From: Pseudobdellovibrionaceae bacterium
GTDB taxonomy: Bacteria; Bdellovibrionota; Bdellovibrionia; Bdellovibrionales; UBA1609
DNA: 63,712 nt
NCBI GenBank assembly: GCA_025354795.1
Contig: JANXMF010000224.1
Span: 1 to 63,712 of the forward strand
Direction of reading: 5' to 3'
The position numbers and the translations under genes were made by a program. Positions 1,082-58,559 of the stretch are shown piece by piece (the stretch's first letter is position 1; each line of letters starts with the position of its first letter). The notes beneath the pieces are model-generated. The model was given only the letters and a program-made list of their open reading frames with translations. It was not told the DNA's origin and made no database searches.

Positions 1082-3619
1082 ATGACGGAGCCCAATTTCT
1101 TTGCGCCGGTGGACGGAGTGGTCATGCCGCTGGCCAATGTACCTGATCCGGTCTTCGCGCAAAAAATGTTGGGTGACGGCGTGGCTATCGAACCCACGTC
1201 ATCACTCTTGCTCGCGCCCAGCGATGGCAAGGTGACGCAGCTCCATCCCAGCCATCATGCGGTCACGATTTTAACACCCTCGGGATTGCAAATTCTCCTG
1301 CACATTGGAATTGATACCGTCAAATTGAAGGGCAAGGGTTTTTCGCCGCTCATTCAGCTGGGTGATTCCGTTCGAAAAGGCCAGGGTCTGATTCGCTTTG
1401 ATAGCGATTTTGTGGCGCAAAAGGCCAAGAGCCTGCTGACGGTGATGGTGGTGTGCGAGGGGCCGGCCCACGCCTTGAAAGACCTCCGGGCGGGCCAGAC
1501 GGTTCGCGCCGGCATAGATAAAGTATTTGCGGCGCGAATGATGGGTGCGACAACCGAGGCGCCGACGGTTCAAAGTGCGTCGGCGCAGGAATCAAAGATT
1601 TTGACGATGAACTTGCCCAACGGCTTACATGCGCGGCCCGCCGCACGCCTCACGGCCTTAGCCAAAGGTTTTGCGCAGACGACGCTGAGTTTGCGCAAGA
1701 ATGGCAGGACTGCCAACGCCAAAAGCGTGGTCGATCTTCTGGGGCTCGAACTTTTGCATGCGGATAAATTTCAAATCGTTGCAGTGGGGGGAGACTGCGC
1801 GCGGGCATTGGCGGCGGTCGTGGAATTTCTGCTGAATCTCGAAGAAACTGCGGAGCCGCACTTGGCGAAATCGATTTCTCCAGCGGGTGGCGGCATTGGC
1901 ATTTCGCCGGGGTTGGCGCTCGGGCGCGTTTGGCACATGGGAAAGGCCCAGTTTGAGATCGCGCGCAAAGCCGACCTTACGAAAGTTTTAGAGCTTGAGC
2001 TGTTGCAGGCGGCGCTCAATCAGGCGCGTGACGAAATTGCACAGCTGCGCCGTGCGAGCGGCGGGCTTCAATCCGAGATCTTTGCGGCTCACGAGGAAAT
2101 GTTGCAAGATCCCGCAATCCTAGACCCAGTCGTTGCGCGCATTGAGCGAGGGGAAAGCGCGGCGTTTGCCTGGCATGAAACGGTGACTGAGCTCGCGCAC
2201 AAATTGCAAAAGTTAAACAATGAATTGTTGCGCAATCGAGCGGCCGATTTGCACGACGTGGATCAGCGGGTGCTTAAAGCTATGGGAATTGAGTCGAGCC
2301 AAGCTAAGCCTACGGTGGCAGGACCGATGATTTTGATCGCAGAAAATCTAACGCCCTCGGAGGCCGCACAATTTGGGACTTTGAACATCGCAGGCTTTTG
2401 CACCGTCGAAGGCGGCGCAACCTCGCACGTCGCGATCTTGGCGCGCTCGATGGGAATTCCTGCGATTGCCGGTATTGATCGCACCGTCTTAGCGCTTCCC
2501 GTTGGCGCTGAAATCATTATCGATGGCGAGTCGGGGCTCATCCAGACTTCGCCCACGCCGGCGCAGAAACGCCAGGTTGAAGAGTGGCAGACCAATCAAA
2601 AAAAGCAAAAGACCGCGAACTTAAAGCATGCGTTTGAAATCGCGCAAACGATCGATGGTCGCGCGATTCACGTGCATGCGAATATCGGCAATCTGGCCGA
2701 TCTTGAGACCGCGCTAAAAATGGGAGCCGACGGGGTAGGTCTGTTGCGCACTGAATTTATGTTCTTAGAGCGCGAGCAAGCGCCGAGTGAAGAGGAGCAA
2801 TTGGGTCTGCTGCAACAGATGGCGAGTTTTTTGGGTGAGCGGACCTTCACTATTCGAACGCTCGATGTCGGCGGGGATAAACCGCTGAGCTATTTGCCGT
2901 TGCCGCGCGAAGAAAATCCGTTTCTAGGCGTACGCGGATTGCGCATCGGCCTGCGCCAACCTGAAATCCTGCGCCAGCAATTGCGCGCGATCTTGCGCAT
3001 CAAGAGCCGCGCTACGATCAATGTGATGTTCCCGATGGTCGCGAGTCTTGAGGAATTTGTCGCGGCCAAAGCCATCGTTGAGGAAGAACGCCGCAAGTTG
3101 AAGGTAGAGCCAGTCGCCGTGGGAATCATGGTTGAGGTTCCCTCCGCGGCTCTGACTGCGCAAGTTTTCGCGCCGGCGGTGGACTTTTTCTCGATTGGAA
3201 CCAACGATTTGACTCAATATACGTTGGCGATGGATCGCGGCCATAAAGAATTGGCGCGCTCGGCAGATGGTCTTCATCCTAGTGTGCTAAGTTTGATTGA
3301 AATGACCACGCGCGCGGCGCAATTGCACGGCAAATGGGTCGGAGTCTGTGGCGGTCTCGCGGGCGACACCGAGGCGACGGAATTGCTGCTTGGTTTTGGG
3401 ATTGATGAGCTGAGCGTGAGCCCCCCCTGCGCACCGTTGATTAACGCTCGGGTGCGCGGCTTAACTTTAGCGCGCGCGCAAGTGTTGGCGCGGCAAGCCC
3501 TGAAAATGGATTCGGCCGTGAGTGTGCGTAAAATGTGTGAGAAAAAACCAACGTCCGAGCGAGGTGCAGCCCATGGTGATACTGAAGACGTCTTATTCGT
3601 TCCTTCAAAGAATAGGTAA
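1082..3619 (+). CDS. PTS multiphosphoryl transfer protein, EIIA(Glc)-HPr-Enzyme I fusion (NagF-like architecture)
   Basis: EIIA-Glc motifs [18 protein letters not shown] and [12 protein letters not shown]. HPr site [13 protein letters not shown]. Enzyme I motifs [34 protein letters not shown]. Start moved to the ATG at 1082 ([12 protein letters not shown]). Confidence 0.9.
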
Positions 3620-5228
3620 AGCACTGATGTTGCCGGTAGCGGTCCTTCCTGCGGCGGGATTGCTGCTGGGGATCGGTAGCGCCAAATTCGCTCTGCTGCC
3701 CACTGCGGTGTCTGATATTATGGCTGTCAGTGGCGGCGCGGTGTTTGGCAATCTGCCGTTGATTTTTGCGCTCGGCACCGCTTTAGGTCTTGCGGCCAAC
3801 GATGGGGTCGCGGCCTTAGCGGCGAGCGTGGGTTATGTGGTTTTGCTCGCTACGATGGGTAGCATGGCCAAGCTTCTCGGGGCCGAGGGAAAAATGGTGA
3901 TGGGAATTGAATCCATCGACACCGGAGTGTTCGGCGGTATCGCAATTGGGATAGCGGCGGCGCTGATCTTTAATCGTTATTATCGTTTGCAGTTGCCTTC
4001 TTACTTGGGATTTTTCTCCGGCAAGCGGTCGGTGCCGATTTTGACGGCCGCGGCAGCACTGGCTTTGGGTGTGGTATTGAGCGTGGTATGGCCGCCTATA
4101 GGCCGCGCGATTCATAGTTTCTCGCTGTGGTCGGCCGCGGGCAACCCGGTGCTTGCGTTTAGTATTTATGGTTTCGTCGAGCGTCTCTTGATTCCCTTTG
4201 GGCTGCACCATATTTGGAATGTGCCGTTCTTTTTTGAGGTGGGCCAGTTTCTCGATCCCACAAGTGGAAAGCTGATTAGCGGTGAAGTGGCTCGCTATAT
4301 CGCGGGCGATCCCACCGCAGGAAATTTGGCTGGGGGCTATTTGTTCAAGATGTGGGGCCTCCCAGCCGCCGCGTTGGCGATTTGGAAAACAGCGCGGCCT
4401 GAAAATCGGGCGATGGTCGGCGGGATTATGATTTCGGCGGCATTGACCTCGTTTTTAACCGGCATCACCGAGCCCATAGAGTTTTCGTTTATGTTCGTGG
4501 CGCCCCTTCTCTATGCCGGGCACGCACTAGCTTGTGCCGCCGCCTACGCGGTATGCATTTTGTTAGGTATTAAGCATGGCATGACATTTTCGCACGGGTT
4601 GATCGACTTTCTGATTCTTTTTCCGCAGTCGTCGAATGCGTTGTGGTTTTTTGTACTGGGCCCCATTTGGGCCGCCGGTTATTTTGTGATTTTCTCGGTG
4701 GCCATTCGCCATTTCAAATTGGCCACACCTGGCCGTGAAGTCGAATCGGTGGCGGTCGAATCCAGCGCGACCGATTCAGGAAAGGCAGAGGCCTTGGTCG
4801 CAGCCTTTGGCGGGCGGGCCAATATTCGCAATCTAGATGCCTGCATCACGCGCTTGCGGGTTGTGGTGGCCGATGCGGCGAGGGTCGATGCACCTAGGTT
4901 AAAAGCACTCGGAGCAACGGCGGTGGTGAGTGTGGCGGACGGTGTGCAGGCGATATTCGGCACCGCTTCCGAAAATTTAAAGACCGATATGGAAAAATAT
5001 TTGGCGGGCTCAAGATTGGCGGTGGTTAGCGATGCAGGTCCCATCGTCCATTTGCACGGCGCACTCGGCGGTGAAGGGAATATCGTTTCGGCGCAGGCAT
5101 TGAGTCCCAACCGTTTGCGGGTGGAATTAAAATCAGGCGACGGTTTACGATTGGAGGATTTGCGCGCTTTGGGAATCGCGGCCTATCAGAAGATTCAGCC
5201 CAACCTTTATCATCTGATTCGGGGATAA
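3573..5228 (+). CDS. PTS EIICB component, glucose/N-acetylglucosamine family (NagE-like), with an extra degenerate EIIB-like C-terminal repeat
   Basis: N-terminus [31 protein letters not shown] motif [22 protein letters not shown] phospho-Cys motif [11 protein letters not shown] (Cys codon 4842-4844). Start at the ATG at 3573 overlaps the upstream gene by 47 nt. Confidence 0.88.
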
Positions 5229-5976: not shown

Positions 5977-6621
5977 TCAAGTCTGCGAATCTAGGCAAAT
6001 CTGACGAGTCAGGGCTTCAAAGTGGAAGCCTGCCCGAGTGGCCCCGCTAAGAAAATGATCAAGAGTTGCTAGAAATTGCGGAGCATTGCGCCGCCGCTGG
6101 CGATCGTGGAGCAAAATCACTTCGCCTTCCCGCAGACGCTGGACGCTGTGATCGGCTGAAGACATCCTCCATTTCCACACAGAGTCGTAGTGGCGAACGG
6201 ACCAAAGAACCGTGGGAAGCCCGAGCTCCTGCAAGGCCCGTCGAAGCTTCGGCGTACGCACTCCGGCCGGCGGCCGAAAGCCGACCGTGGGGGCGCCGCA
6301 AAGACCGTGTAAAAGGCTTTCGGACTCCCGAATCCAGCGCGCGAGCCTAGGAACTTTTGAAAAATAATAACCGTAACTATGATCCAGTGAGTGGTTGCCG
6401 ATGGCATGGCCGCCATTTTGAATATTCACCAGGAGTTCGCGCTGCATGGCTGCTTTTTTGGCGATCAGAAAAAACGTCGCGCGGGCTTGGTGCTTGGCGA
6501 GGACCTGCAAAACCGCGGGTGTGCAAATGGGGTCGGGGCCGTCATCAAACGTCAGATAGACTGCCCGATTCGGATTGCGCACCGAGCGCACACACGGTCC
6601 AAGCCATTCCATCAGCGCCAC
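5977..6621 (-). CDS. polysaccharide deacetylase (NodB homology domain)
   Basis: Motifs YLTFDDGPDP, GHAIGNHSLDH and LLHD. Overlaps the upstream gene stop by 10 nt. Confidence 0.8.
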   Translation of the reverse strand: MALMEWLGPCVRSVRNPNRAVYLTFDDGPDPICTPAVLQVLAKHQARATFFLIAKKAAMQRELLVNIQNGGHAIGNHSLDHSYGYYFSKVPRLARWIRESESLLHGLCGAPTVGFRPPAGVRTPKLRRALQELGLPTVLWSVRHYDSVWKWRMSSADHSVQRLREGEVILLHDRQRRRNAPQFLATLDHFLSGATRAGFHFEALTRQICLDSQT

Positions 6622-7349
6622 GTGAGCAGGGAATGACTGCCATCCGGTTTGTATAAACTAATATTATTTAGTACTTCGTCATCCGCGAGCGCGCGCACGA
6701 ACAACTCGACGCCATTGGATTCATAGTGTCCGGGCGAATCCGTAAGAGCATGAGTTGGCGCATTCACGCAATTCACCGCGATAAGTTCACAGCGCGGGGT
6801 GCGGCCCACCCGCTCGAGACCCGTGCTACTTGCAAGCAGCACTGCGCCCGCGCCCTCCCCGGTGTAACGGCTGCGGATCTTAGTTTCGTTCAGGCCTTCC
6901 ACCATTTCCGCGACGCGGGCATCGACGGCGGTGATTAAACAAAAGTTACAGAGCCCGTGGCGCACCAACAGATGTCCGGTGGCCAGCGCGTCTTCGCCGG
7001 TAAAATGCAAGCGGCTCACCGTCAGCAGAGGTCCCGTGATCCGCCAGGTCATTGCTAGAAATCCAGTGGTCGAATTGTGCAGGCTGTTTTGAAAAAGAAT
7101 CGGGCGCGCCACACCCGTTTGCGACAGTGTCCTAAGGAAATCGATCGTGACTTCCAGCTCGCCATGACAAGAACCGAGCACCAAGCCGCAGTCCTCCCGC
7201 ACCGCCTCGCGGTCAAAGCCCAACATGGTTTGCTCAATCGAGCTGTTGGCCAGAATCATACCGCGGGTGGCTTTGCGGTAGCGCGGCTCTTTTGTTACGG
7301 CCTCGGGATCGCTGGCCAGGCCTGTGCTTACAACATAAACTGAATTCAT
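6612..7349 (-). CDS. beta-ketoacyl synthase-like partner protein (chain-length-factor-like, no active-site Cys motif seen)
   Basis: Start taken at MNSVYVVSTG, where the ATG overlaps the upstream KS stop as ATGA at 7346-7349. Thiolase-fold-like segments PILFQNSLHNSTTGFLAMTWRITGP and YTGEGAGAVLL. The longer ORF-track N-terminus lies inside the KS gene. Confidence 0.65.
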   Translation of the reverse strand: MNSVYVVSTGLASDPEAVTKEPRYRKATRGMILANSSIEQTMLGFDREAVREDCGLVLGSCHGELEVTIDFLRTLSQTGVARPILFQNSLHNSTTGFLAMTWRITGPLLTVSRLHFTGEDALATGHLLVRHGLCNFCLITAVDARVAEMVEGLNETKIRSRYTGEGAGAVLLASSTGLERVGRTPRCELIAVNCVNAPTHALTDSPGHYESNGVELFVRALADDEVLNNISLYKPDGSHSLLTWR

Positions 7350-8512
7350 ATGGCACTCCACACTAAGGCGGCGTTGGTGCCGCCAAAGCCCAGCGTGTTT
7401 TTCAAGATATGCTGAATCTTGGTCGGGACGTTCGTGGGCGGGTGGCGTAAGTGCAGAGCGGGGTCGGGTTGCTCCAGACCGTGAGTTTTCAAAACGATTT
7501 GATGGCGCAGGGCCTCGATGCATAAAATCGACTCGATCACGCCCGAGGCGCCTAAAGCGTGGCCATGCACCCATTTGCTCGAGCTGACCCACGGGGGATC
7601 ATTGCTAAACAGTGACCGTATAGCTGCGGCTTCGGCGCTGTCGTTGTGAGTCGAGCCTGTTCCGTGCGCATGAATCCAATCGATGTCGGCGCATGCCAAA
7701 GCAGCACTCGCTAGCGCCGCGGCCATGGCTTTTCGACAGCCATGGCCTTCAGGCTGAGGGGCGGTCATATGGTAGCCGTCCGAACTTAAACCAAAACCGC
7801 TGAGGCACGCCAGGCTTCGGTCAGACGGCTCACTTTCCAAACATAAAAAGCCCGCACCTTCGGAGAGGTTGATTCCCGAGCGGTGGAGGTCAAACGGTTG
7901 ACTCGCCTTACGTGACAATAGCTGCAGCGACGAGAAGCCTTGAATGGTCAGATCACACAAAACCTCGGCGCCGCCCACGATGCAGCGGTCGACCAAGCCC
8001 TGCTCGAGCCACATGGCCGCGATCGCCAAAGCCTGGGTGGAGGCAGCACACGCGGAGGTCACCAACAATTGTCGGCCGCTGAAGCCAATGCGTGAGCAGA
8101 CCGAATCCAATAGGTCGCCGAGCGGCTGATGCTGAACGGCCTCGACAAATTCGAGCTTCGCCAATGTACCCAGCAAGTAGGAAGTTAAAGCTTTGTCCCA
8201 CTGCGGAATTTGTCCGGTGGTGGTCGCTAAAATAAAGCCATCGGTGGGTCTGAGTTCCGTCCATCCTGCGCGGCGCACGGCTTGCTCCAAGGTTAAGAGC
8301 GCCAATTCCTTCGCGCGATTGGGAGGGAGCGTGACTTTAGCAAAGAGGGGATTGTCGGCAAGCTGCGCCCGGCCCTCAATAAATGCCTGGTCGGGAATGT
8401 ATCCCAGGCCATCCTTGAGCCCGGAAGTGCCATGGCGCGCGGCCTGCCACAGAGCATCAATTGAGCTTCCCGAACAGGTGATCGCGCCTTGACCGGTTAC
8501 CCACACGGCCAT
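7346..8512 (-). CDS. beta-ketoacyl-ACP synthase (FabF/FabB-like)
   Basis: Active-site TSACAAS, HAHGTGSTHND, HGHALGASG. Start at MAVWVTGQG lies 1 nt after the ACP stop. Confidence 0.9.
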   Translation of the reverse strand: MAVWVTGQGAITCSGSSIDALWQAARHGTSGLKDGLGYIPDQAFIEGRAQLADNPLFAKVTLPPNRAKELALLTLEQAVRRAGWTELRPTDGFILATTTGQIPQWDKALTSYLLGTLAKLEFVEAVQHQPLGDLLDSVCSRIGFSGRQLLVTSACAASTQALAIAAMWLEQGLVDRCIVGGAEVLCDLTIQGFSSLQLLSRKASQPFDLHRSGINLSEGAGFLCLESEPSDRSLACLSGFGLSSDGYHMTAPQPEGHGCRKAMAAALASAALACADIDWIHAHGTGSTHNDSAEAAAIRSLFSNDPPWVSSSKWVHGHALGASGVIESILCIEALRHQIVLKTHGLEQPDPALHLRHPPTNVPTKIQHILKNTLGFGGTNAALVWSAI

Positions 8513-30257: not shown

Positions 30258-30421
30258 CCGACCCAACAGAATTGTCCCCATCCAAAGATTTTGCAACTCT
30301 CGATGAAAAACGCCGGCGAGACTTTGCCAACAACCCTGGCCAAACGAATTCCGGCACGGACGAAATCGCTCCGGAGCTGGAAGCGGAAGAAGAGTCTGGC
30401 ACGGACAGTGAAGAAGACTAA
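30254..30421 (+). CDS. small acidic protein (55 aa), not in the ORF track
   Basis: The ATG at 30254 overlaps the YihY stop (ATGA). Reads MTDPTELSPSKDFATLDEKRRRDFANNPGQTNSGTDEIAPELEAEEESGTDSEED and stops at 30419-30421. Confidence 0.35.
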   Translation: MTDPTELSPSKDFATLDEKRRRDFANNPGQTNSGTDEIAPELEAEEESGTDSEED

Positions 30422-30780
30422 GCTAATATAAGGAGGGCAAGCGTAACCGCGGCCGGAAGCGCCTGCATAATCAGAATCTTGATGCTCACGCTATAAGCGC
30501 CGTAGAGCCCCGCGACCACCACGCAGCCGAGGAAAAACATTTTCAACTGGGTGGCAACATCGGGCGCGGGATGCAAAAGCGCCCAGACCAGTCCCGCCGC
30601 CAAAAAGCCATTGTAAAGGCCCTGATTGGCCGCGAGCACCGCCGATATTTGCGCTTGCTCCGCGGTTTGCCTAAATATTTTCAAGCCAATGGGCTGGGTG
30701 AACAAAAACATTTCCAAAACTAGAAAGCCGACATGTTGAATCGCGACAAATCCGACCAGACAATTTATTAATAAGCTCAT
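30418..30780 (-). CDS. DUF1304 membrane protein
   Basis: AIQHVGFLVLEMFLF and ANQGLYNGFLAAGL are family signatures. Start at MSLLINCL. Confidence 0.7.
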   Translation of the reverse strand: MSLLINCLVGFVAIQHVGFLVLEMFLFTQPIGLKIFRQTAEQAQISAVLAANQGLYNGFLAAGLVWALLHPAPDVATQLKMFFLGCVVVAGLYGAYSVSIKILIMQALPAAVTLALLILA

Positions 30781-30984
30781 GGAAGCACGATAAGTGACGA
30801 GCCCTACCACTGTCCAGTAACAAATAGACGAATTCGGCACAAGCGATAAACAGCCAAATACTCAAGTCAAATCAACGGTTAGAAAAATAGGCTAGGCCGC
30901 GAAGATAATATGTATTTCACAAGAGTGTCACCGTAAACTGACTTCGTGGCCATAACCAAACCAAAACAGTAGAAAAAACACAAT

Positions 30985-33360
30985 ATGAAAAATCAATTCA
31001 AAAGAATTTTGTTGGTGGGTACCCTTGTCTGCGGAGTGATCGCCGTGGGCTGCAAGAGTATGAAGGCAAGAGAAGGTGGCGGTCGCACCGTGGCCAGTGA
31101 CATAAACGAAGATCGGAAGTCGGTGTTTGGCAATCCAGAATTCGACGCCAGCTTTAAGCCGAAGGATAAACACGAAGAGAATATTAGGAATTTCCTCAAA
31201 GGCACTGACAAGAGTAAAACGGTGAATGTGGAATTTCCGCCGGGATTGACGTCACACGAGGTTTCCCAGCTTTGGCATTTGAGCGAGGGCAGTGACGTAC
31301 TCCCCCTACGCTGGTTCATGCATGTTAAGAGCCAAACGAGTGCACTTAAGAACACGCCGCTTTACGACCAATTGGGCAAGAAATTTGGCGTCATTGAAGA
31401 GGATGGCCTTGACACTTCCAACTACGGCTTGCGCACCGGCTTGCAGCATAACTTCCCGTTCAAAGTGGTGGGAATTACTGCCGCATGGAGTGACGCGGAC
31501 CCGATGGATTCCGACGCCACCCTGCAGTCGCCCGACGAGAAAATTATCGGCAGCCGAATCTATGGCACCCAAGTCAAGAACGGCAAAGTATCGATCGCCA
31601 TGGTCGGCACCAACTGCGCGCTCTGCCACACCGGCCAGGTGCAAGTCGGTGACACCTCGAAGCTCTACGACGGCGCCCCCAATATGATGTACATCCGCGG
31701 ATTCTTTCAAGACATGGCGGGTTCGGTGCTAAAAACTATGATGGAACCTGAGCTGATGGAGAAGTTCCTGATCGAAACCGGAACCCCGACAAGGGAGGCT
31801 AAGAAAATCGGCGAAGAATTTCCCGCGCGCCTAAGACTCGAGTTGCTCGGTCCAATTTTGGGCTCAGGACCTGCGACTGAAGTCATTGAATTTTTAGTGG
31901 CGGATCACGGTTTGCCGCGCAGCCGACTCAAGGCGACCGAAAAAGTGAAAGCGACTGTTCAGCAGGCACTTTTTGAAAAACGCCCGGTGGTCCAAAAATA
32001 TTTACTTGAATTTCTGGCTCTAACCTATCACGTGAAAGTCACCGACCTCAGCCCCACCTTAGGGCTTCGTATGAAGTGGCTCGCCACTTTACTTGGGGCG
32101 GATCCTAAAATTAAAGTCACTAACGAAGGTTATGCGCGTACCGACGCGTTTGGACGGATTTCCAACTGGGTGGCACGGGGCGATAACCCTATTGATCTGG
32201 TCGCGACCGCTTCGGTTCCACCGATGTGGGCGATTAAATATAAGGCGGCCTTTCATTACAACAACAACACCAACTCAGTTCTCATGAGAAATGTGGGTCA
32301 AGCCTTTGGTCTAGGTGCAATCCTTACCGGCAAAGATGGATGCGATACAACCAAGGAGGGCAGTTGCGTCTCTACCGTCAATCTCTATAACCTCAATCGT
32401 TTAGAGTCTCTATTATATAAGTTGAAAACCCCGAACTGGGAGGAAAGCTTTCCGAACTCGCCGGTTGAAATGGCACTCGCGATTCAGGGCTGTAGTAAGT
32501 TTCAACAGGCCTGTGCGGGCTGCCATGAATCTGCAAAGCGGGTAGGCCCTGCAAAAATGCTGATTCAACCCAACATGTTTTCACCAGTTGCGACTGGAAC
32601 AGATTCGGTTTATGCGCAAATGCAGGGAACTCCCGTCAAAGTCGCTAACGGCGAAATCCCCTTTCGTGTAGCGTTGTTTTCGTTTACCAAGGGCGTACGC
32701 GACGACTACTTTCGCCTGAATGGCATTGGCGAAGATCAAATTCCAGTTTGGCAGCGTGCGGCGATTCGTGGCCCCGAGGTTTTTCGCGACACCTATTTGG
32801 GCACACCTCCTTATGATAAAGCGCTAGACTACATGAGTGAGATCAATACTCCTGGGATTGCCTATGTCGCAAAGAACTTGGCGGGCGTGTGGGCAACAGC
32901 GCCTTATTTGCATAATGGTTCCATTCAAAATTTGGAAGCCTTATTGACTCCGGCCAAGCGTCCGCGCTTTTTCTTCCTCGGAACTAAAAAGTACGACGCG
33001 GAAAGACTCGGATTCATGGACGACCCAGTGGCCACTTCAGAGGTTGACGGTTTGGATATAGAGACCTATGGCAAATGGTCTCAGCTCAAGAGCCCGCTCC
33101 AGCTGCATAATCAAATCCGTTGTGTTAAGTATCCCGCCGCTTGCTTCGACGCCAATGATATGGGTAACAGCAATAAGGGACACAACTTTCCTGAGTTCAA
33201 AAAACTGACTGCCGCCGACAAGCGCAATATTATCGAATTTATGAAAATCCTGCGACCCGACCCCGAGTATTCTTGGACTACGCTGCCCCGTTATATAGTT
33301 GAGGGACAAACATGTAAGCAAGTTGACCCGAGCCAGTTTTCAAAGAACAATTATTTATAA
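30985..33360 (+). CDS. large exported dihaem c-type cytochrome lipoprotein, MauG / cytochrome c peroxidase / RoxA-like
   Basis: Lipobox signal MKNQFKRILLVGTLVCGVIAVGC. CXXCH at 31615-31629 (CALCH) and 32512-32526 (CAGCH). WATAPYLHNGSIQNLEALL resembles the CCP/MauG distal motif. Confidence 0.7.
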   Translation: MKNQFKRILLVGTLVCGVIAVGCKSMKAREGGGRTVASDINEDRKSVFGNPEFDASFKPKDKHEENIRNFLKGTDKSKTVNVEFPPGLTSHEVSQLWHLSEGSDVLPLRWFMHVKSQTSALKNTPLYDQLGKKFGVIEEDGLDTSNYGLRTGLQHNFPFKVVGITAAWSDADPMDSDATLQSPDEKIIGSRIYGTQVKNGKVSIAMVGTNCALCHTGQVQVGDTSKLYDGAPNMMYIRGFFQDMAGSVLKTMMEPELMEKFLIETGTPTREAKKIGEEFPARLRLELLGPILGSGPATEVIEFLVADHGLPRSRLKATEKVKATVQQALFEKRPVVQKYLLEFLALTYHVKVTDLSPTLGLRMKWLATLLGADPKIKVTNEGYARTDAFGRISNWVARGDNPIDLVATASVPPMWAIKYKAAFHYNNNTNSVLMRNVGQAFGLGAILTGKDGCDTTKEGSCVSTVNLYNLNRLESLLYKLKTPNWEESFPNSPVEMALAIQGCSKFQQACAGCHESAKRVGPAKMLIQPNMFSPVATGTDSVYAQMQGTPVKVANGEIPFRVALFSFTKGVRDDYFRLNGIGEDQIPVWQRAAIRGPEVFRDTYLGTPPYDKALDYMSEINTPGIAYVAKNLAGVWATAPYLHNGSIQNLEALLTPAKRPRFFFLGTKKYDAERLGFMDDPVATSEVDGLDIETYGKWSQLKSPLQLHNQIRCVKYPAACFDANDMGNSNKGHNFPEFKKLTAADKRNIIEFMKILRPDPEYSWTTLPRYIVEGQTCKQVDPSQFSKNNYL

Positions 33361-33387
33361 ATCAATTTACGAGAGGATCTTTTCTCT

Positions 33388-35649
33388 ATGATCTGTAGAA
33401 AGCGCATGCGAAGGGGCCTGTGGGTCCATATGACAATTGTGTTATTAAGTCTGGTCGCTTGCGTAACAACAGGTGATAAGAATCGTTATCCCGCAAACGC
33501 CCCCGAAGAAGTTCGCAACTATCCGCCCGGCGGTCGATTCCTGATTTGGAATATCGCCAATCCGGTTGCGATCAAAGCATTGCAAGAAAAAGCCGAGGCT
33601 GAACCACCTGATGCGGGTGCCAAAGAACTTCTCACGAAAATAAAGACGATTCAGGCGACCATGGTGGTGGCTTTCGAGAAGATTGATAAGCCGACAGGGA
33701 TCACTAAGTTTGAAGATTACACTGTTCCACAGGCTCGCTTTCGCGCCATGCTGATAGTTTCCAGACAGTCAGGCAACGATTTCTTTGCGGAACTGCGCAA
33801 AGCTGAACCTGTCTTTTGCCTTCCCGGTGATGACAAGGAACGGGCCACTTGCATAGTCGCCCGCTACGATGAAGTGCACAGATCTTTTGGCGAAGTCAGC
33901 CGCTTAAAGCCCCCGCCGGATCTGAATGTGATTTACACGCCCGTGATGGAGCCGACCTTGGGCGGCAACGAGTTTATGCTTTCGCGCGATGGCCGTGAAG
34001 GGCACAGCTTGGCCAACGAAGAGAAATTTCCGCTGATGCACGATTTCGTCAACAATAGCAATAAGGGCAACGGGTCCAAAGACGCGAGCATGAAACGCGT
34101 GCGCCATATTGTAAAACGATTAACTTTAGAGGCGCTTCGTGATCATGCCGATGACGTCACCAAAACCTTGGATGTCGGCGCGTACATCAGCCGCAATATT
34201 TCTATGGGTCTGGTTAGCGATTACTTCGGCTTTTATCCGCCCGACTTTTACACTCAGGTGCAATGGTCGCAAAACACCCAGCAAAGTTTTTTCCATAATC
34301 CATTGAATTTCGAGCCGCTCAATAAATTGGCCTTAGCCGCAGGTCAGGAAATGCAGGCCTACATCACTAAGATGCTGATGCCTGAGCTCAAACGTGAGAT
34401 GGAGTTTAGTCGCCCCGCCTATGACACCGTCACCCAAATGATTCAAGGTCATGCCCAATTCGAAAAGGGTGGCGTGGATCCGATGGCGCGGGTAATGGCC
34501 AATACAATCGGTTTATTGGTCGGTGCGGGGGAGACAACCAACCTCGCGGTTACCCGTTCGTTGTATAATCTGCTGACTCGTCCAGATATTCTTCCTCAGG
34601 CCATTGCCGCAGCAAAAAAAGCCAACTCTCGTACGGCTACGGCTGTAGACAATCAACTTTTTGATCACTACGTTTGGGAGGCTTTGCGCTTCCAACCCAT
34701 CAATCCTTGGGTTGAGCGTCGCGCTTTTCATGATTACAGCGTAACTCCGGTTAAAGAGGTTGTGAACGGTACTGATGTGCCGGGGACACCAGTGCCGATC
34801 GCTGAGGGCACGCGCGTCCTAGTGGCTATGCAATCCGGCATGATGGATTCCAAGAAATATAAGGATCCGACCAAGTTTGATATCACCCGTCCGCTTGGCG
34901 ACTACATGCATGTCAGCATCGACTATCACCGCTGCCTGGGTGACGATGTGGCGCTGGTTATGGTGCCTGAGATTATTAAACAGGTTTTGATTAATTTGCC
35001 TGGCTTGAGACTGCAAATGGCGCCGGACAAAGAAGGCAAGATGGTCGCGGTGCCGCCCAACGATCCGAAGGGCAGCCCCTTCCCAGAAACTTGGAAACTG
35101 GAATTCGACAGCAAAAGCGCCGAGATTAAAGGCCCATCTTCGCATATGGAAGAAGCGCGCGCTTATCTCTTTGGCGAATTGGCGTCTTTAGCCGATGCGG
35201 CCGAACAAGTGAGTGTCATTCGCAACTATGTCACTCATCATGACGATTTTAATCGCGTGAGAAATCCCCTAGCCCGTCTTGACTTTCCTCAGACGCTTGC
35301 GAATAGCGCGGCGATTGACGAACTGGAAAAGAAAATGGTTGCTAAGGTAAGCCGGTTAGGGGCTCCAGAATTTTGTGTCAATGCCACGGCAGTGGAAACC
35401 TTTAGGTCCGCAAAAGACCTGCAGGCTTTCTGCTCATTGCCCTTTGATTTCAGAGCCTGTTACTTCCTGCAACGCACGGCAGCGCTGAAATCACCACAGC
35501 ACGCTTTTGACCATTGCGCCTTCCGCGCCGAAGCCAAGGATGCCGCCCCCGGTGTATTCGCGAAGCTCAAGACGCTCGCCGATAGCAATCCTACGTTTGC
35601 GTTCTTGAAATATTATGATTTTTCCGCGACAAAACGTCATCGCGAGTAA
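33388..35649 (+). CDS. cytochrome P450-like haem-thiolate protein with twin-arginine/lipobox signal and about 190-aa Cys-containing C-terminal extension
   Basis: I-helix LLVGAGETTN, K-helix EALRF, DPTKFDITRP, and Cys-ligand loop YHRCLGDDVA (Cys codon 34933-34935). N-terminus MICRKRMRRGLWVHMTIVLLSLVAC. Confidence 0.7.
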   Translation: MICRKRMRRGLWVHMTIVLLSLVACVTTGDKNRYPANAPEEVRNYPPGGRFLIWNIANPVAIKALQEKAEAEPPDAGAKELLTKIKTIQATMVVAFEKIDKPTGITKFEDYTVPQARFRAMLIVSRQSGNDFFAELRKAEPVFCLPGDDKERATCIVARYDEVHRSFGEVSRLKPPPDLNVIYTPVMEPTLGGNEFMLSRDGREGHSLANEEKFPLMHDFVNNSNKGNGSKDASMKRVRHIVKRLTLEALRDHADDVTKTLDVGAYISRNISMGLVSDYFGFYPPDFYTQVQWSQNTQQSFFHNPLNFEPLNKLALAAGQEMQAYITKMLMPELKREMEFSRPAYDTVTQMIQGHAQFEKGGVDPMARVMANTIGLLVGAGETTNLAVTRSLYNLLTRPDILPQAIAAAKKANSRTATAVDNQLFDHYVWEALRFQPINPWVERRAFHDYSVTPVKEVVNGTDVPGTPVPIAEGTRVLVAMQSGMMDSKKYKDPTKFDITRPLGDYMHVSIDYHRCLGDDVALVMVPEIIKQVLINLPGLRLQMAPDKEGKMVAVPPNDPKGSPFPETWKLEFDSKSAEIKGPSSHMEEARAYLFGELASLADAAEQVSVIRNYVTHHDDFNRVRNPLARLDFPQTLANSAAIDELEKKMVAKVSRLGAPEFCVNATAVETFRSAKDLQAFCSLPFDFRACYFLQRTAALKSPQHAFDHCAFRAEAKDAAPGVFAKLKTLADSNPTFAFLKYYDFSATKRHRE

Positions 35650-35661
35650 ACAATTAAATTT

Positions 35662-35687
35662 AAGCCCACGTCGTCCGGCGTGGGCTT
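35662..35687 (+). terminator. stem-loop after the P450-like gene (weak T-tract)
   Basis: AAGCCCACG (35662-35670) pairs with CGTGGGCTT (35679-35687) around an 8-nt loop. Followed by TCCTC, so it may act as an attenuating or partial terminator. Confidence 0.45.
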
Positions 35688-35846
35688 TCCTCAGCTGACT
35701 TAACCTCACTGTTCTCCCGCGTAAACTATACCACTTTAGACACTCCTGCAGAACGCCCCCCGCCACAGACCCATTTCTCTTGTGGATCCCCCACTCACGT
35801 GCTGAGATTTCTAATGAGTAATTTTCATCCAGGAAGGGGCGAAAAC

Positions 35847-36656
35847 ATGATTCGACTACTGCTCTGTTTTATCCTTACAAATGGTCCTTGTGTCTTTGCG
35901 TTGACGACGGAAACCGGTGTGAGCTTTAAAACGTCTGACGGTCTGACTTTGAACGGCAAAATGAGTTATCCCAAAGATAACCAATCGGGCAAACGCATCG
36001 GAGTCTTGTTAATCCACGGCGCTGGTCCCATGGACATGAACCTCTGGATACCAGGCTCGGTCTCAGCCAACGGTCAACCGCACAAGGCGTTTGAGTCCAT
36101 TGCCCACGTGCTCGGCGACAAGGGCATCATTACCTATCGCTACAATAAACGCGGCATCACGGATGAGCCCAATGGCGCACCCCTGGTGGATAATGCCATC
36201 TATGGCGCGATCACGCTGGATCAGTTGATTGACGATGCGAGCCTGGCCCTTAAGGTTCTCCAGGCCGATCCCAATGTCGATCCGGGGAAGATAATAGTTC
36301 TCGGAATCAGCCAGGGCACACTCATCACCCCGCGTGTGGTGAAAAAGGTGGGCGGCGTGGCCGGTATGATTCTAATGAGCTCGATTGGCAGTTATGACAA
36401 CAACGACAGCCTGATCGCCTCGCTCAAGCTGACGACTTTACTTATGCATGGTGAGATCGACGCGATGACCCCGATTCGGGAATTCAATTTGATCGTGAAT
36501 GCGCTTAAAGCTGTGGGCGCCAAGAATTACACCACCATGGTGTATCCGGGTCTTGGTCATGGCTTCTCGCCGAACGTGAATGCCAAGCCGACCCTTGGCC
36601 CGATTGAACCCGCGGTTTTGTCGGATTTGCCAGTTTGGGTGAATAAAAGTTTTTAA
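35847..36656 (+). CDS. secreted alpha/beta-hydrolase
   Basis: GGAAGGGG RBS. Signal peptide MIRLLLCFILTNGPCVFA. Nucleophile elbow GISQG. LLIHGAG and a C-terminal GLGHGF (catalytic His region). Confidence 0.7.
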   Translation: MIRLLLCFILTNGPCVFALTTETGVSFKTSDGLTLNGKMSYPKDNQSGKRIGVLLIHGAGPMDMNLWIPGSVSANGQPHKAFESIAHVLGDKGIITYRYNKRGITDEPNGAPLVDNAIYGAITLDQLIDDASLALKVLQADPNVDPGKIIVLGISQGTLITPRVVKKVGGVAGMILMSSIGSYDNNDSLIASLKLTTLLMHGEIDAMTPIREFNLIVNALKAVGAKNYTTMVYPGLGHGFSPNVNAKPTLGPIEPAVLSDLPVWVNKSF

Positions 36657-48699: not shown

Positions 48700-49521
48700 T
48701 CAGCGCCAAATCCCTTCGATAGTGGTTGCGTTTTGGTCGCCAAGGCCAAAGTTCCCCAGCGCCCAGTTATCCTCGACCAAGCGAAGTAAACTATAATTAT
48801 TTAGTGATGCGTTTGAAACGGCGCCCGGCTGCACACTGTCGCCGAGCATAAGGGTCAAAATCGCATTGCCGCCCAAAATCTCGCTTTCGTCAAACGTCAG
48901 CACAAACAGCGTGCCAGTCATGAATCGCGGATCGTTGAGGAGGGGGCCAAACTTCTCGCTTAGCCAGCGAGTGGCAAACTGAACGTCGGTGTCATGGCCA
49001 TCGTTGTTCATATCCGGAATGTACAGCGCGTATTCGGGCAGTGAGCCACTGGCGATATCGCTTTCAAGCGTGGCCGGAGCGGTGATATTTGCACAGCGTG
49101 CCGAATTGTTCGTGACATTGACGTAACTCAGAAACGGCACATGCTTGCGCACATATCGTCCTTGAACTTCTCCCACAAAACAATTTCCGGGATAACCTTC
49201 GGCGTAGACTCTCCATTTTAAGTTCTTGTTCTCAAGCAAATCGCCAACGTGCGAGACGTCGAGATTGACCTTGCCGTCGCTCAGGACTCCGTGCGTACTT
49301 CCGGAGGTCATAGCGATGTAATTGGGTTGGGAAGGATGAGCTTCGCCGCGAAATTTTTGCAACAGGGCACCGCGCTCGATCAGAGCTTTAATAAAAGGTT
49401 GTTGCACGGCCTCGCTATAATTTGCATTTTCCAAAATGATGGTAAAAATGCGTTGAAACCTGGGATCCCCGTGGCTGTTGATGGATACGAATACTAAGAA
49501 AATCGCCAGTCCGTATTTCAT
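48700..49521 (-). CDS. secreted phosphoesterase-family protein (acid phosphatase / phospholipase C-like)
   Basis: Signal peptide MKYGLAIFLVFVSINSHG. Motifs IILENANYSEA and AHPSQPNYIAMTSG. Confidence 0.6.
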   Translation of the reverse strand: MKYGLAIFLVFVSINSHGDPRFQRIFTIILENANYSEAVQQPFIKALIERGALLQKFRGEAHPSQPNYIAMTSGSTHGVLSDGKVNLDVSHVGDLLENKNLKWRVYAEGYPGNCFVGEVQGRYVRKHVPFLSYVNVTNNSARCANITAPATLESDIASGSLPEYALYIPDMNNDGHDTDVQFATRWLSEKFGPLLNDPRFMTGTLFVLTFDESEILGGNAILTLMLGDSVQPGAVSNASLNNYSLLRLVEDNWALGNFGLGDQNATTIEGIWR

Positions 49522-55611: not shown

Positions 55612-58161
55612 CTATTTTAAAACCTTGGCGTTTTCCACCACCCAACGGCCGATTTCCTTCGGCAGCTTGGCGACATTCAGTTTGTCCAAGCTGGCGCCGA
55701 CGGCGCTGGTCAGGATCTGAGTGAGATCGTCCTTTAACGCGGCCCTCTCGGCCGAAGCCCAAGCCAGGTCTTCACTGCGGGCGTCCGCAAGAAGGCCTCG
55801 GGCCAAGATACGCTCTTCGGTTGAGTAGGCAAACTTCGGCAATTGCACGTTCTTGATCACGGTCTTCGGTGCGCCGGCCGAAGTGTCAGGGTTAGGAATT
55901 TCTACGTCGCCGATGATCACGTCTTTGCCGATCGTCAATACCACTTCGCGCGCCCTAGTCGTCAGATAGGTAACTAGATCGTCTGCAGTGGGGCTTGCGA
56001 CAAATTTAAGATCTTTGAGCGATTCACCCGCAAGAGCCTTTAGTTCTTGTTTGCGATACTCGGTCGCAAACCGCTCAAGAAAAGTACGGGCGTTGGCTGT
56101 GATCACTTTCACTTCATCGTCATTCAGCGTGAATACCTTTTCGCTGCTGCCGACGCCATTGCGATACACCGTCTGCGCGAGCAGCTCTAGTGTGGTGATG
56201 GTCTGTTCCACAAAGTCATCCGCGAGGGGCGCGAATATCTTTTGATATCCGCCCAAGCGTTTGACTTCGTCACTAAGGTATTTGAGTTGCGCCGCAAGCA
56301 CCGGTTCCGTGTTGAACTCAGAAACGACCGGGCTTTGCCGCTGAATCGCCAAAATGGCGCCGGACGCGGTGAGCTGGCGGAGATAAGTGGTGCGCCATTT
56401 CAGCATTTTTGCAGCCATGACAGTGGGACTGGGCAGGGCCACCTCTTCCACGGGCCTAATCTCTTCGCCCGCCATGGGAGTCTTAGCTACGATGTAAGTT
56501 TCAAGCAGTCTTGAGGCCAGGGTTCGTAAGCTTTCAGCTGCTAGGTAACTGTCGGACTCTAAAGGCGAAGCTCCGACATCAAAGGATGCGCAATCGTAAT
56601 AGCGAAAGATTTTTGCATCGGTGCAGAAGAGCGGCCATTGCTCACGGGGTATTTTCGCATCCTTGTATAGGTAGGCGATGGACTTTTGATCGTAACTAAG
56701 AACGGTTCCGGATTTTAGCTGATCGCCGAGCATAAAATCTTCTTCGGCGAGCAGATAGTCCATGACCGTGCTTGAAATCGCTAAGCTGGCAGGGGCGGCC
56801 TTGGTGGTGAAATAGGCCGCCACTAAGCTATTGCGATCATTCACAGAATAGTTTCCAACCAATGAGCCCGCGAAGTTGTGCCGCAGCCCAAGCGTGTGGC
56901 CGACTTCGTGTGCCGTCACCGATCGAATGTAGTCTTGTGCCGCCTTGAGTACCGTGGCGTCGTCTATGTCGGACGAAAGGAGCGATTCAATGGACGTCGC
57001 AGATTGTTGGTTCGACAAGTGATCACAAAGCGACTCTTGTTCAAAGCCGGCCAAGCGCACCGCGGACCTTTTGAGCGTGCGTACGGAACGCAATTTGCGC
57101 GCCATCATGCGGGCGCTGGCTTTGCCAATAAAAGCGAACGCACTGGTTAAGAACACTTGCGCATGCATGAGTTCGCCTGTGCGTGGGTCGGCCTGAATAT
57201 CCGCGTAGGCAAAGCCCGCGGTGTCAAACGGCACCCACTGTACGATATTGTAATCGGGATGGGGCGCCGAGACTCCCTTGGGCGCATCCACTACAGTGAT
57301 TAAGTCACTTCCCGCTACTTTATTCCAATAAAGAATCCCTTCACGAACCGCATCGCGAAATTCGGGCGGAGTGTTTGAGGAGATTGCATAAACGATAGGG
57401 CCCTTGGGATTCCAGCGCGTGGTAAAAATATCGTTGGTACCGGCGGTGTTTTGCATGGGCGTTGTTTCGAAAAATCCGAAGCGCTCAAGATTTCCCGTGG
57501 AACGCAGAGCTGGATAAGCGGAGTCGGGCGCATACGGCGATAGATAGTACCGCACTTCTAGCGGCATTATACCGTCATCCACTCTCTGCTGCGCGATCTG
57601 ACGAATAAAAACGCGATTGTTATTATCGACGCCGGCGCTTTCCAAATAGCTTTTTTGTAGGTCTAGGGCACGGAAATTTTCCTCCGGATCGTAGTTTCTG
57701 CCTTGGAGGTCGGGGGCGTTCAGATCGCGGGCCATGAACAGATGGGACATGCCTTCGTTGAAATCAAAGGTTATGGATTTCTTGTCACTGCTCACTACTG
57801 GAAATTCCGCGAGCAGAATGGTCGAGGGCAAATCGGTCGTGACGACGTGGCCCGTGGAGGTTTCGAGTAAATAAAGGCGGGCCCCGCGTTCGCGAAACGC
57901 CACAATGCGGCTTTTCAAGTTGGAACTCATCGCCGCCGTGGTTTGGCCGATGATCTCGCCTTGCAACAGAAATTCTTTTTCCAGCGCCTTGCGCTCGAGG
58001 ATGAGGTGAAAGGAAGCATCTGAGCTTAGCGTCCTGGTCGGGACCACACTAAAGGATTCGCGAACGTTCGGCGCAGCTTGTACGTTGTTGTTTTTGGCTT
58101 TCATGCCATTTTGACAGGCGACGGTGCAAAGCAATAGGGCTGCGCTTAAATAATATTTCAT
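55612..58161 (-). CDS. zinc metalloprotease lipoprotein (met-zincin, HEXXH)
   Basis: GGGAGGGG RBS. Signal and lipobox MKYYLSAALLLCTVAC. Active site VTAHEVGHTLGLRHNF. Confidence 0.8.
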   Translation of the reverse strand: MKYYLSAALLLCTVACQNGMKAKNNNVQAAPNVRESFSVVPTRTLSSDASFHLILERKALEKEFLLQGEIIGQTTAAMSSNLKSRIVAFRERGARLYLLETSTGHVVTTDLPSTILLAEFPVVSSDKKSITFDFNEGMSHLFMARDLNAPDLQGRNYDPEENFRALDLQKSYLESAGVDNNNRVFIRQIAQQRVDDGIMPLEVRYYLSPYAPDSAYPALRSTGNLERFGFFETTPMQNTAGTNDIFTTRWNPKGPIVYAISSNTPPEFRDAVREGILYWNKVAGSDLITVVDAPKGVSAPHPDYNIVQWVPFDTAGFAYADIQADPRTGELMHAQVFLTSAFAFIGKASARMMARKLRSVRTLKRSAVRLAGFEQESLCDHLSNQQSATSIESLLSSDIDDATVLKAAQDYIRSVTAHEVGHTLGLRHNFAGSLVGNYSVNDRNSLVAAYFTTKAAPASLAISSTVMDYLLAEEDFMLGDQLKSGTVLSYDQKSIAYLYKDAKIPREQWPLFCTDAKIFRYYDCASFDVGASPLESDSYLAAESLRTLASRLLETYIVAKTPMAGEEIRPVEEVALPSPTVMAAKMLKWRTTYLRQLTASGAILAIQRQSPVVSEFNTEPVLAAQLKYLSDEVKRLGGYQKIFAPLADDFVEQTITTLELLAQTVYRNGVGSSEKVFTLNDDEVKVITANARTFLERFATEYRKQELKALAGESLKDLKFVASPTADDLVTYLTTRAREVVLTIGKDVIIGDVEIPNPDTSAGAPKTVIKNVQLPKFAYSTEERILARGLLADARSEDLAWASAERAALKDDLTQILTSAVGASLDKLNVAKLPKEIGRWVVENAKVLK

Positions 58162-58559
58162 TTCCACCCCTCCCAGAGCACGCGCAGTTAAATCATCGGA
58201 TGTTGTCTTTGTCATGCATTTCCGACAACTCGAAGTAGTATGCATTTTTTGTAATAAAAATCGTGAATGTGAGCCATTAGGATCTTCATTTCTGCGCCCG
58301 GACTAAACTACCTTTATCTTAAAAATCGCGGCTGGATGTAGTTCGGAAACTGATAGTCTTAGCTTTACTTTGACGGCCACTCCCGTTCATACGTTGGGGG
58401 CAAGTGGTGTACGAGTACTAGTCTTTTAAACCAGGCCCGCGAACTGGAGTATTAGGCGCTGCAGTCTGAGCCAACGCATCAAATAGCACGAGTTTTATTT
58501 CTATTGACCCTGTAGAAGTCATGGTCTTCCATATTCCAGTGTACTCCGGGGGGAAGCTC

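Follow-up and report, generated by a model that had tools for sequence, protein, structure and literature searches.

Two adjacent genes in a 63,712-nucleotide contig of a Pseudobdellovibrionaceae bacterium (JANXMF010000224.1, GenBank assembly GCA_025354795.1; this whole stretch is called the window below) encode a dihaem c-type cytochrome and a cytochrome P450, each with a lipoprotein export signal, and genes of the same two families lie side by side in many related loci. By analogy with known systems, we propose that the pair would constitute a periplasmic oxylipin-type module, in which a dihaem dioxygenase makes a lipid hydroperoxide that the P450 converts, with consumption of O2 but not of NAD(P)H. 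We hold this reading tentatively, at a probability of roughly 0.45. An earlier note on the same DNA had proposed a haem oxidation module of three co-directional genes; the three open reading frames (ORFs) are present as it described, including the gap of 27 nt between the stop of gene 1 and the start of gene 2.

Gene 1 (positions 30985–33360, + strand; 791 aa) encodes a lipoprotein dihaem c-type cytochrome that, by score and motifs, is an enlarged, RoxA-related member of family NF040606. Its N-terminus, MKNQFKRILLVGTLVCGVIAVGC, consists of a basic N-region and a hydrophobic core followed by a lipobox, which reads A-V-G-C in the sequence (31042–31053, +; Cys23). A Cys at this position is present in the consensus of the homologue alignment, and lipoboxes are also found in the gene 1 orthologues of three other loci (L001, L026 and L032). 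The two CXXCH sites are CALCH at nt 31615 (C211) and CAGCH at nt 32512 (C510), and a WATAPYLHNGS motif spans residues 636–646. When 31 homologues were aligned, C211/C214/H215, C510/C513/H514, H643 and H733 proved invariant. H733 aligns with H641 in the sequence match to the RoxA structure 4b2n, and H641 is among the haem-binding residues given for RoxA (PMC4496055). The lipobox, both haem sites and the WATAPYLHNGS motif had all been recognised in the earlier note, which also remarked that the protein is twice the size of classical dihaem peroxidases; this is correct, though the size is ordinary for NF040606, whose members have 660–900 residues.

Against the NCBIfam model NF040606, named 'di-heme-cytochrome C peroxidase', gene 1 scores 243.9 bits (cut-off 150), and against the RoxA-like Pfam family PF21419 it scores 60.8 bits (cut-off 26.7). 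Its AlphaFold2 (AF2) model has a predicted local distance difference test score (pLDDT) of 85 and a predicted template-modelling score (pTM) of 0.87; a Foldseek search with this model gave RoxA (4b2n) as the sole significant match in the Protein Data Bank (PDB), with E 2.4e-8 and a template-modelling score (TM) of ~0.3. By sequence, too, gene 1 has RoxA 4b2n as its sole match among solved structures (E 5.8e-7). Assignment to RoxA, RoxB or RoxC themselves was rejected, since the scores of 38.7–55.9 bits, set against equivalog cut-offs of 900–1000, are confined to a 39-residue motif region. A classical cytochrome c peroxidase (CCP) or MauG protein was rejected as well: Pfam CCP_MauG gave no match at E≤1, MauG-like NCBIfam models gave E values of 0.1–0.3, and no CCP or MauG chain appeared among the PDB matches, either by sequence or by fold. 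Because gene 1 lies above the NF040606 cut-off and far below those of RoxA/B/C, resembles RoxA at a TM of only ~0.3 and has no CCP_MauG match, we conclude that this dihaem cytochrome c is related to RoxA but belongs to a family of its own, as yet uncharacterised. Of the initial label 'MauG/RoxA-like', the second half holds, with RoxA as the only structural relative, while the likeness to MauG is limited to one motif. Among named sources, the closest homologues of gene 1 belong to Bdellovibrionota. The window encodes another NF040606 dihaem cytochrome c (P0172; 52086–54461, − strand, probable start 54392) that shares 54% identity with gene 1; its signal peptide is of type I, without a lipobox, no P450 adjoins it, and its neighbour (55612–58245, −) encodes an 877-aa Met-zincin lipoprotein.

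Gene 2 (33388–35649, +; 753 aa) opens with MICRKRMRRGLWVHMTIVLLSLVAC and encodes a lipoprotein cytochrome P450 with a core at about residues 90–570 and a Cys-rich C-terminal domain. It matches Pfam p450 (PF00067) with 52.1 bits (cut-off 22.8), and the P450 signatures are in place: an I-helix reading GLLVGAGETT, with AGETT at residues 380–384, an ExxR at E431/R434, and a Cys loop reading ..DYHRCLG that corresponds to the FxxGxxxCxG pattern. The proposed haem thiolate ligand, Cys516 (codon 34933–34935, +) in the motif H-R-C-L-G, aligns to the Cys ligand of solved P450s. In three alignments, comprising 9 homologues (A1), 19 exported homologues (A3) and 20 homologues (A4), C516, H514, G518, T383, E431 and R434 are invariant; E382 never varies in A1 and A3, and its conservation in A4 is at least 90%. 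In the AF2 model, the mean pLDDT is 75–98 for the majority of the 10-residue blocks of the core and falls to 44–49 at residues 201–229. Foldseek returned 1510 PDB matches at E≤0.001, and all 50 of those listed are P450s, with TM values up to 0.79 (target-normalised, P450BioI); CYP153A and CYP116B also match. A profile of the gene 2 family, searched against the PDB, retrieved CYP134A1, MycG and PikC first (E 1.8e-32). Sequence and model thus agree that gene 2 has a true P450 fold with a conserved Cys ligand, and haem binding is predicted. The P450 identity and the conservation of this Cys, on which the earlier note had staked its reading, are therefore upheld by Pfam, model and Foldseek alike.

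P450s that work independently of a redox partner have replaced the acid–alcohol pair of the I-helix, with Asn in CYP74 and Ppo and with Arg-Pro in CYP152, and CYP74 has an insertion in its Cys loop. The pair characterises P450s that activate O2 and require electrons; CYP74, CYP152, CYP8A/5A and the Ppo P450 domains have lost it. Since gene 2 keeps it as E382-T383, has a Cys loop of normal spacing without an insertion, and has class I monooxygenases as its best PDB matches by sequence and profile, we place it outside the CYP74, CYP152, CYP8A/5A and Ppo groups, yet it may share a similar working mode. The analogy with CYP152 and CYP74 enzymes that had been drawn at the outset consequently fails at the level of motifs. 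Gene 2 is closest by profile and fold to class I P450s such as CYP134A1 (CypX), P450BioI, CYP153A and PikC, with which it shares the Cys loop, ExxR and AGxET; these, however, are cytoplasmic and ferredoxin-dependent, whereas gene 2 begins with a lipoprotein signal and ends in a C-terminal domain with four Cys, and its family has haem-oxygenase partners rather than ferredoxin neighbours.

The C-terminal domain of gene 2 (about residues 570–753; 35095–35646, +) contains four Cys in the pattern C-x~20-C-x8-C-x18-C, which recurs in homologues (P0002, P0004, P0022-P0027, P0025 and P0038); a domain of this type is absent from all 12 cytoplasmic relatives examined. It was modelled poorly (pLDDT ~50), and its four Cys probably form two disulfides. 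Signal peptides were judged by rule and by conservation across homologues, with the lipobox rule [LVI][ASTVI][GAS]C at the end of a signal peptide. Both AVGC of gene 1 and LVAC of gene 2 are preceded by a basic N-region and a hydrophobic H-region and were taken as lipoprotein signals on this basis. The Cys of the gene 2 lipobox L-V-A-C (33451–33462, +; Cys25) is invariant in 19 exported homologues that otherwise share 24–47% identity. In 16 of 21 exported representatives, the haem ligand is the only Cys of the P450 core, and such a Cys-poor core, combined with a fixed four-Cys pattern in the C-terminal domain, looks like a signature of folding in an oxidising compartment. Both proteins are therefore predicted to be exported lipoproteins; the earlier note had recognised a lipobox in gene 1 and an export signal in gene 2.

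Export through the Tat pathway, marked by (S/T)RRxFLK in the N-region, was considered for gene 2, which contains MRRGLW; the twin arginine is not conserved, and most exported homologues have no RR. Export of this clade is hence probably Sec-dependent, from which we infer that the gene 2 product would acquire haem b outside the cytoplasm. A distant exported relative (L056, ~3000–4314) starts with MRRRTFLSSSLTLSSATLFQGC, combining a Tat-type twin arginine (MRRRTFLSS) with a lipobox, which suggests that some exported members may cross the membrane folded and haem-loaded. In a neighbour-joining tree of 142 family cores, 29 of the 30 representatives with export signals fall into one clade of 37 (~37 clusters at 50% identity), and its genome-derived members are from metagenome-assembled genomes labelled Bdellovibrionales, Bdellovibrionaceae or Pseudobdellovibrionaceae. 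On one metagenomic contig (L003, 8527–11226), the exported P450 gene is truncated and runs into a Transposase_mut insertion sequence, which replaces the C-terminal Cys-rich domain.

Relatives of gene 2 are numerous: 21 matches were found in a word-indexed search, 233 representative clusters at E≤1e-30 in an exhaustive profile search, and 334 in a metagenome scan. Neighbouring genes were counted by tblastn with reference proteins in 97 related loci and the window, 98 in all, with a distance limit of 2.6 kb from the P450. An NF040606-type dihaem gene lies within this limit in 61 of the 98 loci, which substantiates the co-occurrence anticipated in the earlier note, and a gene for an animal haem peroxidase resembling cyclooxygenase (COX-like) lies there in 17. 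Both are present in two loci and neither in 22, about half of which are contigs too short to judge; in four of the rest, a patatin gene overlaps the P450 stop. Overall, the P450 adjoins a dihaem or COX-like gene in 76/98 loci. The dihaem gene is positioned upstream on the same strand (55), downstream on the same strand (13) or on the opposite strand (3), indicating synteny that has been reshuffled yet kept. Of the partner dihaem proteins, eight were scanned (six from other loci, the second copy of the window and the L001 orthologue), and each reaches the NF040606 cut-off, with 150–584 bits. Where the P450 has a clear lipoprotein signal, a dihaem gene is found in 9 of 11 loci and a COX-like gene in none of the 11; L006 and L032, which lie outside this filter, also have a dihaem gene. 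The pairing extends to sources labelled Pyrinomonadaceae, Actinomycetes and Bdellovibrionales, at identities down to ~26%. One could suppose that the genes are independent and that their adjacency carries no functional meaning, as long-flank loci with neither partner do exist (L049, L051–L053); with a partner adjoining in 76 of 98 loci, in several gene orders, from such diverse sources and at such low identity, we regard this as highly improbable.

Immediately after the dihaem-P450 pair, two loci (L001, 6463–8379; L006, ~6055–8088) encode a third lipoprotein, a P450 paralogue that is devoid of the Cys ligand and the I-helix motif but retains the ExxR, as well as a C-terminal domain with Cys. 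Its role may be that of a pseudo-enzyme or of a partner that binds lipids; the window has no copy of it. All-against-all clustering of the flanking ORFs recovered only the dihaem, COX-like and DUF1304 families, besides generic ABC and Hsp70 proteins. The DUF1304 gene of the window (30418–30840, −; PF06993, 127.9 bits) is divergent from gene 1 and encodes a small membrane protein; homologues lie beside P450 or dihaem genes in three further loci (L003, 7904–8272; L005, 2519–2836; L026, 9083–9385), which makes it a recurrent neighbour of the exported module. An accessory role is conceivable for it, in anchoring to the membrane or in the handling of haem or lipids. The recurrence of DUF1304 had been overlooked in the initial reading, as had the second dihaem paralogue and the fact that the P450 relatives beside exported dihaem proteins are mostly cytoplasmic.

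Most relatives of gene 2 are ~420 aa long, start with M..YLEQYD and have no signal peptide. The dihaem proteins beside these cytoplasmic P450s have signal peptides, lipoboxes or N-terminal membrane anchors, together with two CXXCH sites. A P450 without a signal next to an exported dihaem protein implies that there is no obligate physical redox partnership in those loci, and a shared membrane-permeant substrate is a simpler link between the two. The pair in the window would be a relocated version of a widespread pair, whose P450 is in most bacteria cytoplasmic and adjoins the gene of an exported NF040606 dihaem protein or of a cytoplasmic COX-like dioxygenase; in one clade, labelled Bdellovibrionales wherever a source is named, the P450 appears to have gained a lipoprotein signal and a disulfide-type C-terminal domain.

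This arrangement bears on the possibility that gene 2 is an extracytoplasmic monooxygenase, supplied by the dihaem cytochrome c with electrons from the respiratory chain or a periplasmic donor for classical O2 activation. Such an explanation is kept alive by the Glu382-Thr383 pair retained in the gene 2 alignments, and it would suit the class I monooxygenases that are closest to gene 2 in fold and sequence, as well as the placement of both proteins in one compartment in the exported loci and their constant pairing there. We nevertheless rate its likelihood as low, because the same exported dihaem family adjoins signal-less P450s, where direct electron transfer is impossible. Furthermore, close relatives of gene 2 are paired with COX-like proteins or fused to a DyP or a GST domain, and none of these partners carries electrons; the potentials of haem c are also usually too high to reduce a P450. 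The bolder version of this idea, that the exported clade represents a natural class of extracytoplasmic P450s driven by a c-type cytochrome, the first of its kind, with the dihaem lipoprotein feeding electrons directly, seems to us less probable still. If it were true, it would define a new class of redox partner, and predatory Bdellovibrionota would hydroxylate prey or envelope lipids in the periplasm.

No conventional source of electrons was detected around the P450, in agreement with the earlier note. Scans of ~40 ORFs in the window with Pfam identified no ferredoxin, flavodoxin or dedicated P450-reductase family, none of the plausible ORFs in the window has a ferredoxin-type Cys motif, and the only FAD/NAD-binding Pfam matches are enzymes of a pigment cluster upstream. 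Within 3 kb of the P450, a ferredoxin-like ORF was found in 0 of 96 related loci, and none of the 20 long gene 2 relatives scanned contains a reductase or ferredoxin domain. Several gene 2 relatives are instead fused to other domains: a C-terminal COX-like domain (P0040, P0046 and P0072), an N-terminal DyP domain (P0093, P0117, P0123, P0134, P0144 and P0152) or an N-terminal GST-like domain (P0115, P0126, P0133 and P0153). The match between the COX-like partner and COX-2 extends over the full length (E 2.8e-56), and the partner retains the motif LLYRWHSL, in whose YRWH we read the catalytic Tyr and proximal His known from COX and from fungal dioxygenase (DOX) domains.

Cytoplasmic members of the P450 family are also found in larger arrangements. 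Three loci (L015/L016, 2816–10866; L040, 5679–13841) share a cluster in the order Old Yellow Enzyme (OYE; Oxidored_FMN), dihaem, 129-aa ORF, dihaem, P450 and COX-like; it is flanked by transposases, is built on a cytoplasmic P450 relative and, judged by its gene content, looks like a complete bacterial oxylipin pathway. In another cytoplasmic branch (L012–L014 and L043; P450 at 8001–9275 in L012), the P450 stop overlaps the start of a gene encoding a patatin-like phospholipase of 593 aa, a radical SAM gene comes next, and the vicinity has neither a dihaem nor a COX-like gene. Patatins free fatty acids, COX-like DOX domains form fatty-acid peroxides, and OYE enzymes act as enone reductases, like OPR in the synthesis of jasmonate. 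With patatin, COX-like and OYE partners, the context of the P450 family has a consistent oxylipin flavour.

Fatty-acid peroxides made by a haem or iron dioxygenase are rearranged by dedicated P450s without a redox partner in several eukaryotic systems, namely the fungal Ppo or linoleate diol synthases (LDS), animal COX with CYP8A1 or CYP5A1, and plant lipoxygenase (LOX) with CYP74. As in fungal Ppo, relatives of gene 2 are fused to or adjoin a COX-like domain with the same YRWH, although the bacterial fusions run from P450 to DOX. In contrast to all these systems, the pair in the window has a c-type dihaem partner and both of its enzymes lie outside the cytoplasm, and gene 2 keeps the I-helix Glu-Thr pair that is lost in Ppo, CYP8A/5A and CYP74. 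With RoxA, gene 1 has in common that it is an exported dihaem c protein with a conserved MauG-type His motif and C-terminal GH(D/N)F His ligand; it differs in its membership of NF040606, its TM of ~0.3 and its low equivalog scores, and RoxA has no P450 partner.

A closer parallel is the periplasmic oleate-diol synthase of Pseudomonas aeruginosa, formed by the 10S-dioxygenase PA2077 and the 7,10-diol synthase PA2078, a hydroperoxide isomerase, which belong to a 'FadCcp' subfamily; both are RoxA-related dihaem enzymes that need O2 and no reductant (PMC4496055). The earlier note knew of no described system of this composition, and this one is comparable. It likewise has two genes, periplasmic location, RoxA-related dihaem protein, two CXXCH sites and a PY(L/F)HNGS motif, with gene 1 compared by published description only (PMC4496055). 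The chemistry proposed here would also be alike, with oxygenation of an unsaturated fatty acid by O2, followed by isomerisation of the hydroperoxide, and with no use of NAD(P)H. The second Pseudomonas enzyme, however, is another dihaem protein where the window has a P450. Signal peptides of type I take the place of lipoboxes in the Pseudomonas proteins, whose haem motifs are 235–245 residues apart as opposed to 299 in gene 1.

In the module we favour, both proteins would be exported, probably by Sec, and lipid-anchored, with haem b inserted into the P450 outside the cytoplasm. By analogy with RoxA and PA2077, the dihaem protein of gene 1 would then use O2 to attack an unsaturated fatty acid, or another membrane lipid, at a double bond, yielding a hydroperoxide or related peroxide. 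The P450 would use this peroxide as both substrate and oxidant and isomerise or cleave it to a diol, epoxy-alcohol, ketol or aldehyde, as suggested by PA2078, the fungal Ppo/LDS P450 domains, CYP74 and CYP8A/5A. The same analogies underlie the proposed substrate class, direction of the pathway and independence of a reductant. A peroxide that serves as the oxidant would explain how a P450 can work outside the cytoplasm, and also why its relatives are coupled to haem dioxygenases and peroxidases instead of reductases. The hydroperoxide lipid chemistry suggested in the earlier note is thus compatible with the NF040606, COX-like, DyP, GST-like, patatin and OYE partners, even though the CYP152/CYP74 analogy it leaned on does not hold.

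Several observations weigh against this module. Gene 2 retains the acid–alcohol pair E382-T383, unlike CYP74, CYP152, CYP8A/5A and Ppo. In most loci a signal-less P450 lies beside an exported dihaem protein, so that the intermediate would have to cross the membrane. The structural likeness of gene 1 to RoxA is weak (TM ~0.3), and RoxA itself cleaves polyisoprene and releases no hydroperoxides. Finally, the DyP and GST partners are peroxide consumers and would also fit a role in detoxification.

That last point leads to a serious rival, in which the pair repairs or detoxifies lipid peroxides, the dihaem protein acting as a peroxidase, like classical CCPs, and the P450 removing lipid hydroperoxides, so that the envelope is protected from oxidative damage and no signalling or degradation products are made. 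Every type of partner belongs to a superfamily that consumes peroxides (CCP-like dihaem, animal haem peroxidase, DyP and GST-like), the NCBI name of NF040606 is 'di-heme-cytochrome C peroxidase', and enzymes on both sides of the membrane would suit the removal of membrane peroxides. We still consider this role unlikely, for the COX-like partner keeps in its YRWH the catalytic Tyr of fatty-acid dioxygenases, gene 1 gave no Pfam CCP_MauG match, and the patatin and OYE neighbours suggest a pathway that frees and processes fatty acids. The nearest characterised relatives of gene 1, RoxA and PA2077, are moreover oxygenases and not peroxidases (PMC4496055).

The surroundings of the pair raise the question of a different substrate. 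An aryl-polyene/flexirubin-like pigment cluster occupies ~5977–27849, some 3–25 kb upstream, with two ketosynthase pairs, KR/SDR, an aromatic amino-acid ammonia-lyase, a halogenase-like flavoprotein, an AMP-binding enzyme, acyltransferases, a GT2/lipid-A-acyltransferase fusion and a LolA-like protein. Given this cluster, and with the polyisoprene cleaver RoxA as the only structural relative of gene 1, the substrate might be an alkene other than a fatty acid (a polyisoprenoid, carotenoid, quinone side chain or aryl-polyene), which the dihaem protein would cleave as RoxA does and whose fragments the P450 would oxidise. Pigment genes, however, never recur beside the P450 module in other loci, whereas patatin, COX-like and OYE genes do, and oxidation of the fragments by the P450 would again need electrons outside the cytoplasm. 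We therefore think such a substrate improbable, and the functional link to the upstream polyene cluster suggested in the earlier note was set aside.

The third gene of the original proposal, a secreted alpha/beta-hydrolase (35847–36656, +, in an ORF open from 35799), matches Hydrolase_4, DLH, Peptidase_S9 and, in part, EstD. Its likeliest start is ATG 35847, behind the ribosome-binding site GGAAGGGG and 197 nt past the stop of gene 2, in line with the hairpin and 'about 200 nt' noted before. This GC-rich 9-bp hairpin (35662–35687), just 3' of the gene 2 stop, probably marks the end of a two-gene unit; it is not a textbook intrinsic terminator, since a T-rich tail is missing on the + strand. 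No homologue of the hydrolase was found in any of the 97 related loci, and it was accordingly rejected as a third part of the module. A 167-aa ORF of the window never recurs in related loci either. A PF04185 phosphoesterase (phospholipase C/acid phosphatase family; 48700–49521, −), secreted and encoded about 13 kb away from the module, is a further candidate lipid-active exoenzyme with no link to the module by synteny.

P450s are usually seen as enzymes that lie in the cytoplasm or face the membrane and draw their electrons from NAD(P)H, and reductase-free pairs of dioxygenase and P450 are known in fungi, animals and plants. Our searches of the full-text literature, which covers few subscription journals, yielded no description of exported or periplasmic bacterial P450s or of dihaem-P450 pairs; nor did they yield one of DyP-P450 fusions, of bacterial COX-like proteins with P450s or of Bdellovibrio P450s, and only the PA2077/PA2078 papers were relevant. 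What appears to be new is the combination of a c-type dihaem enzyme with a P450, the predicted relocation of a P450 into the cell envelope, as a lipoprotein carrying an additional disulfide-type domain, and the coupling, throughout the family, of one P450 clade to partners of the NF040606, COX-like, DyP and GST kinds.

If the proposed module is real, the clade of ~37 clusters would contain the first natural extracytoplasmic bacterial P450s traceable in the literature searched, raising the questions of how haem b is inserted and where the oxidising equivalents come from. It would provide a functional lead for two uncharacterised families, the P450 clade and NF040606, and would point to oxylipin-type chemistry being much commoner among bacteria than the lone Pseudomonas case suggests. 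Predatory Bdellovibrionota could use such a module on the membranes of their prey.

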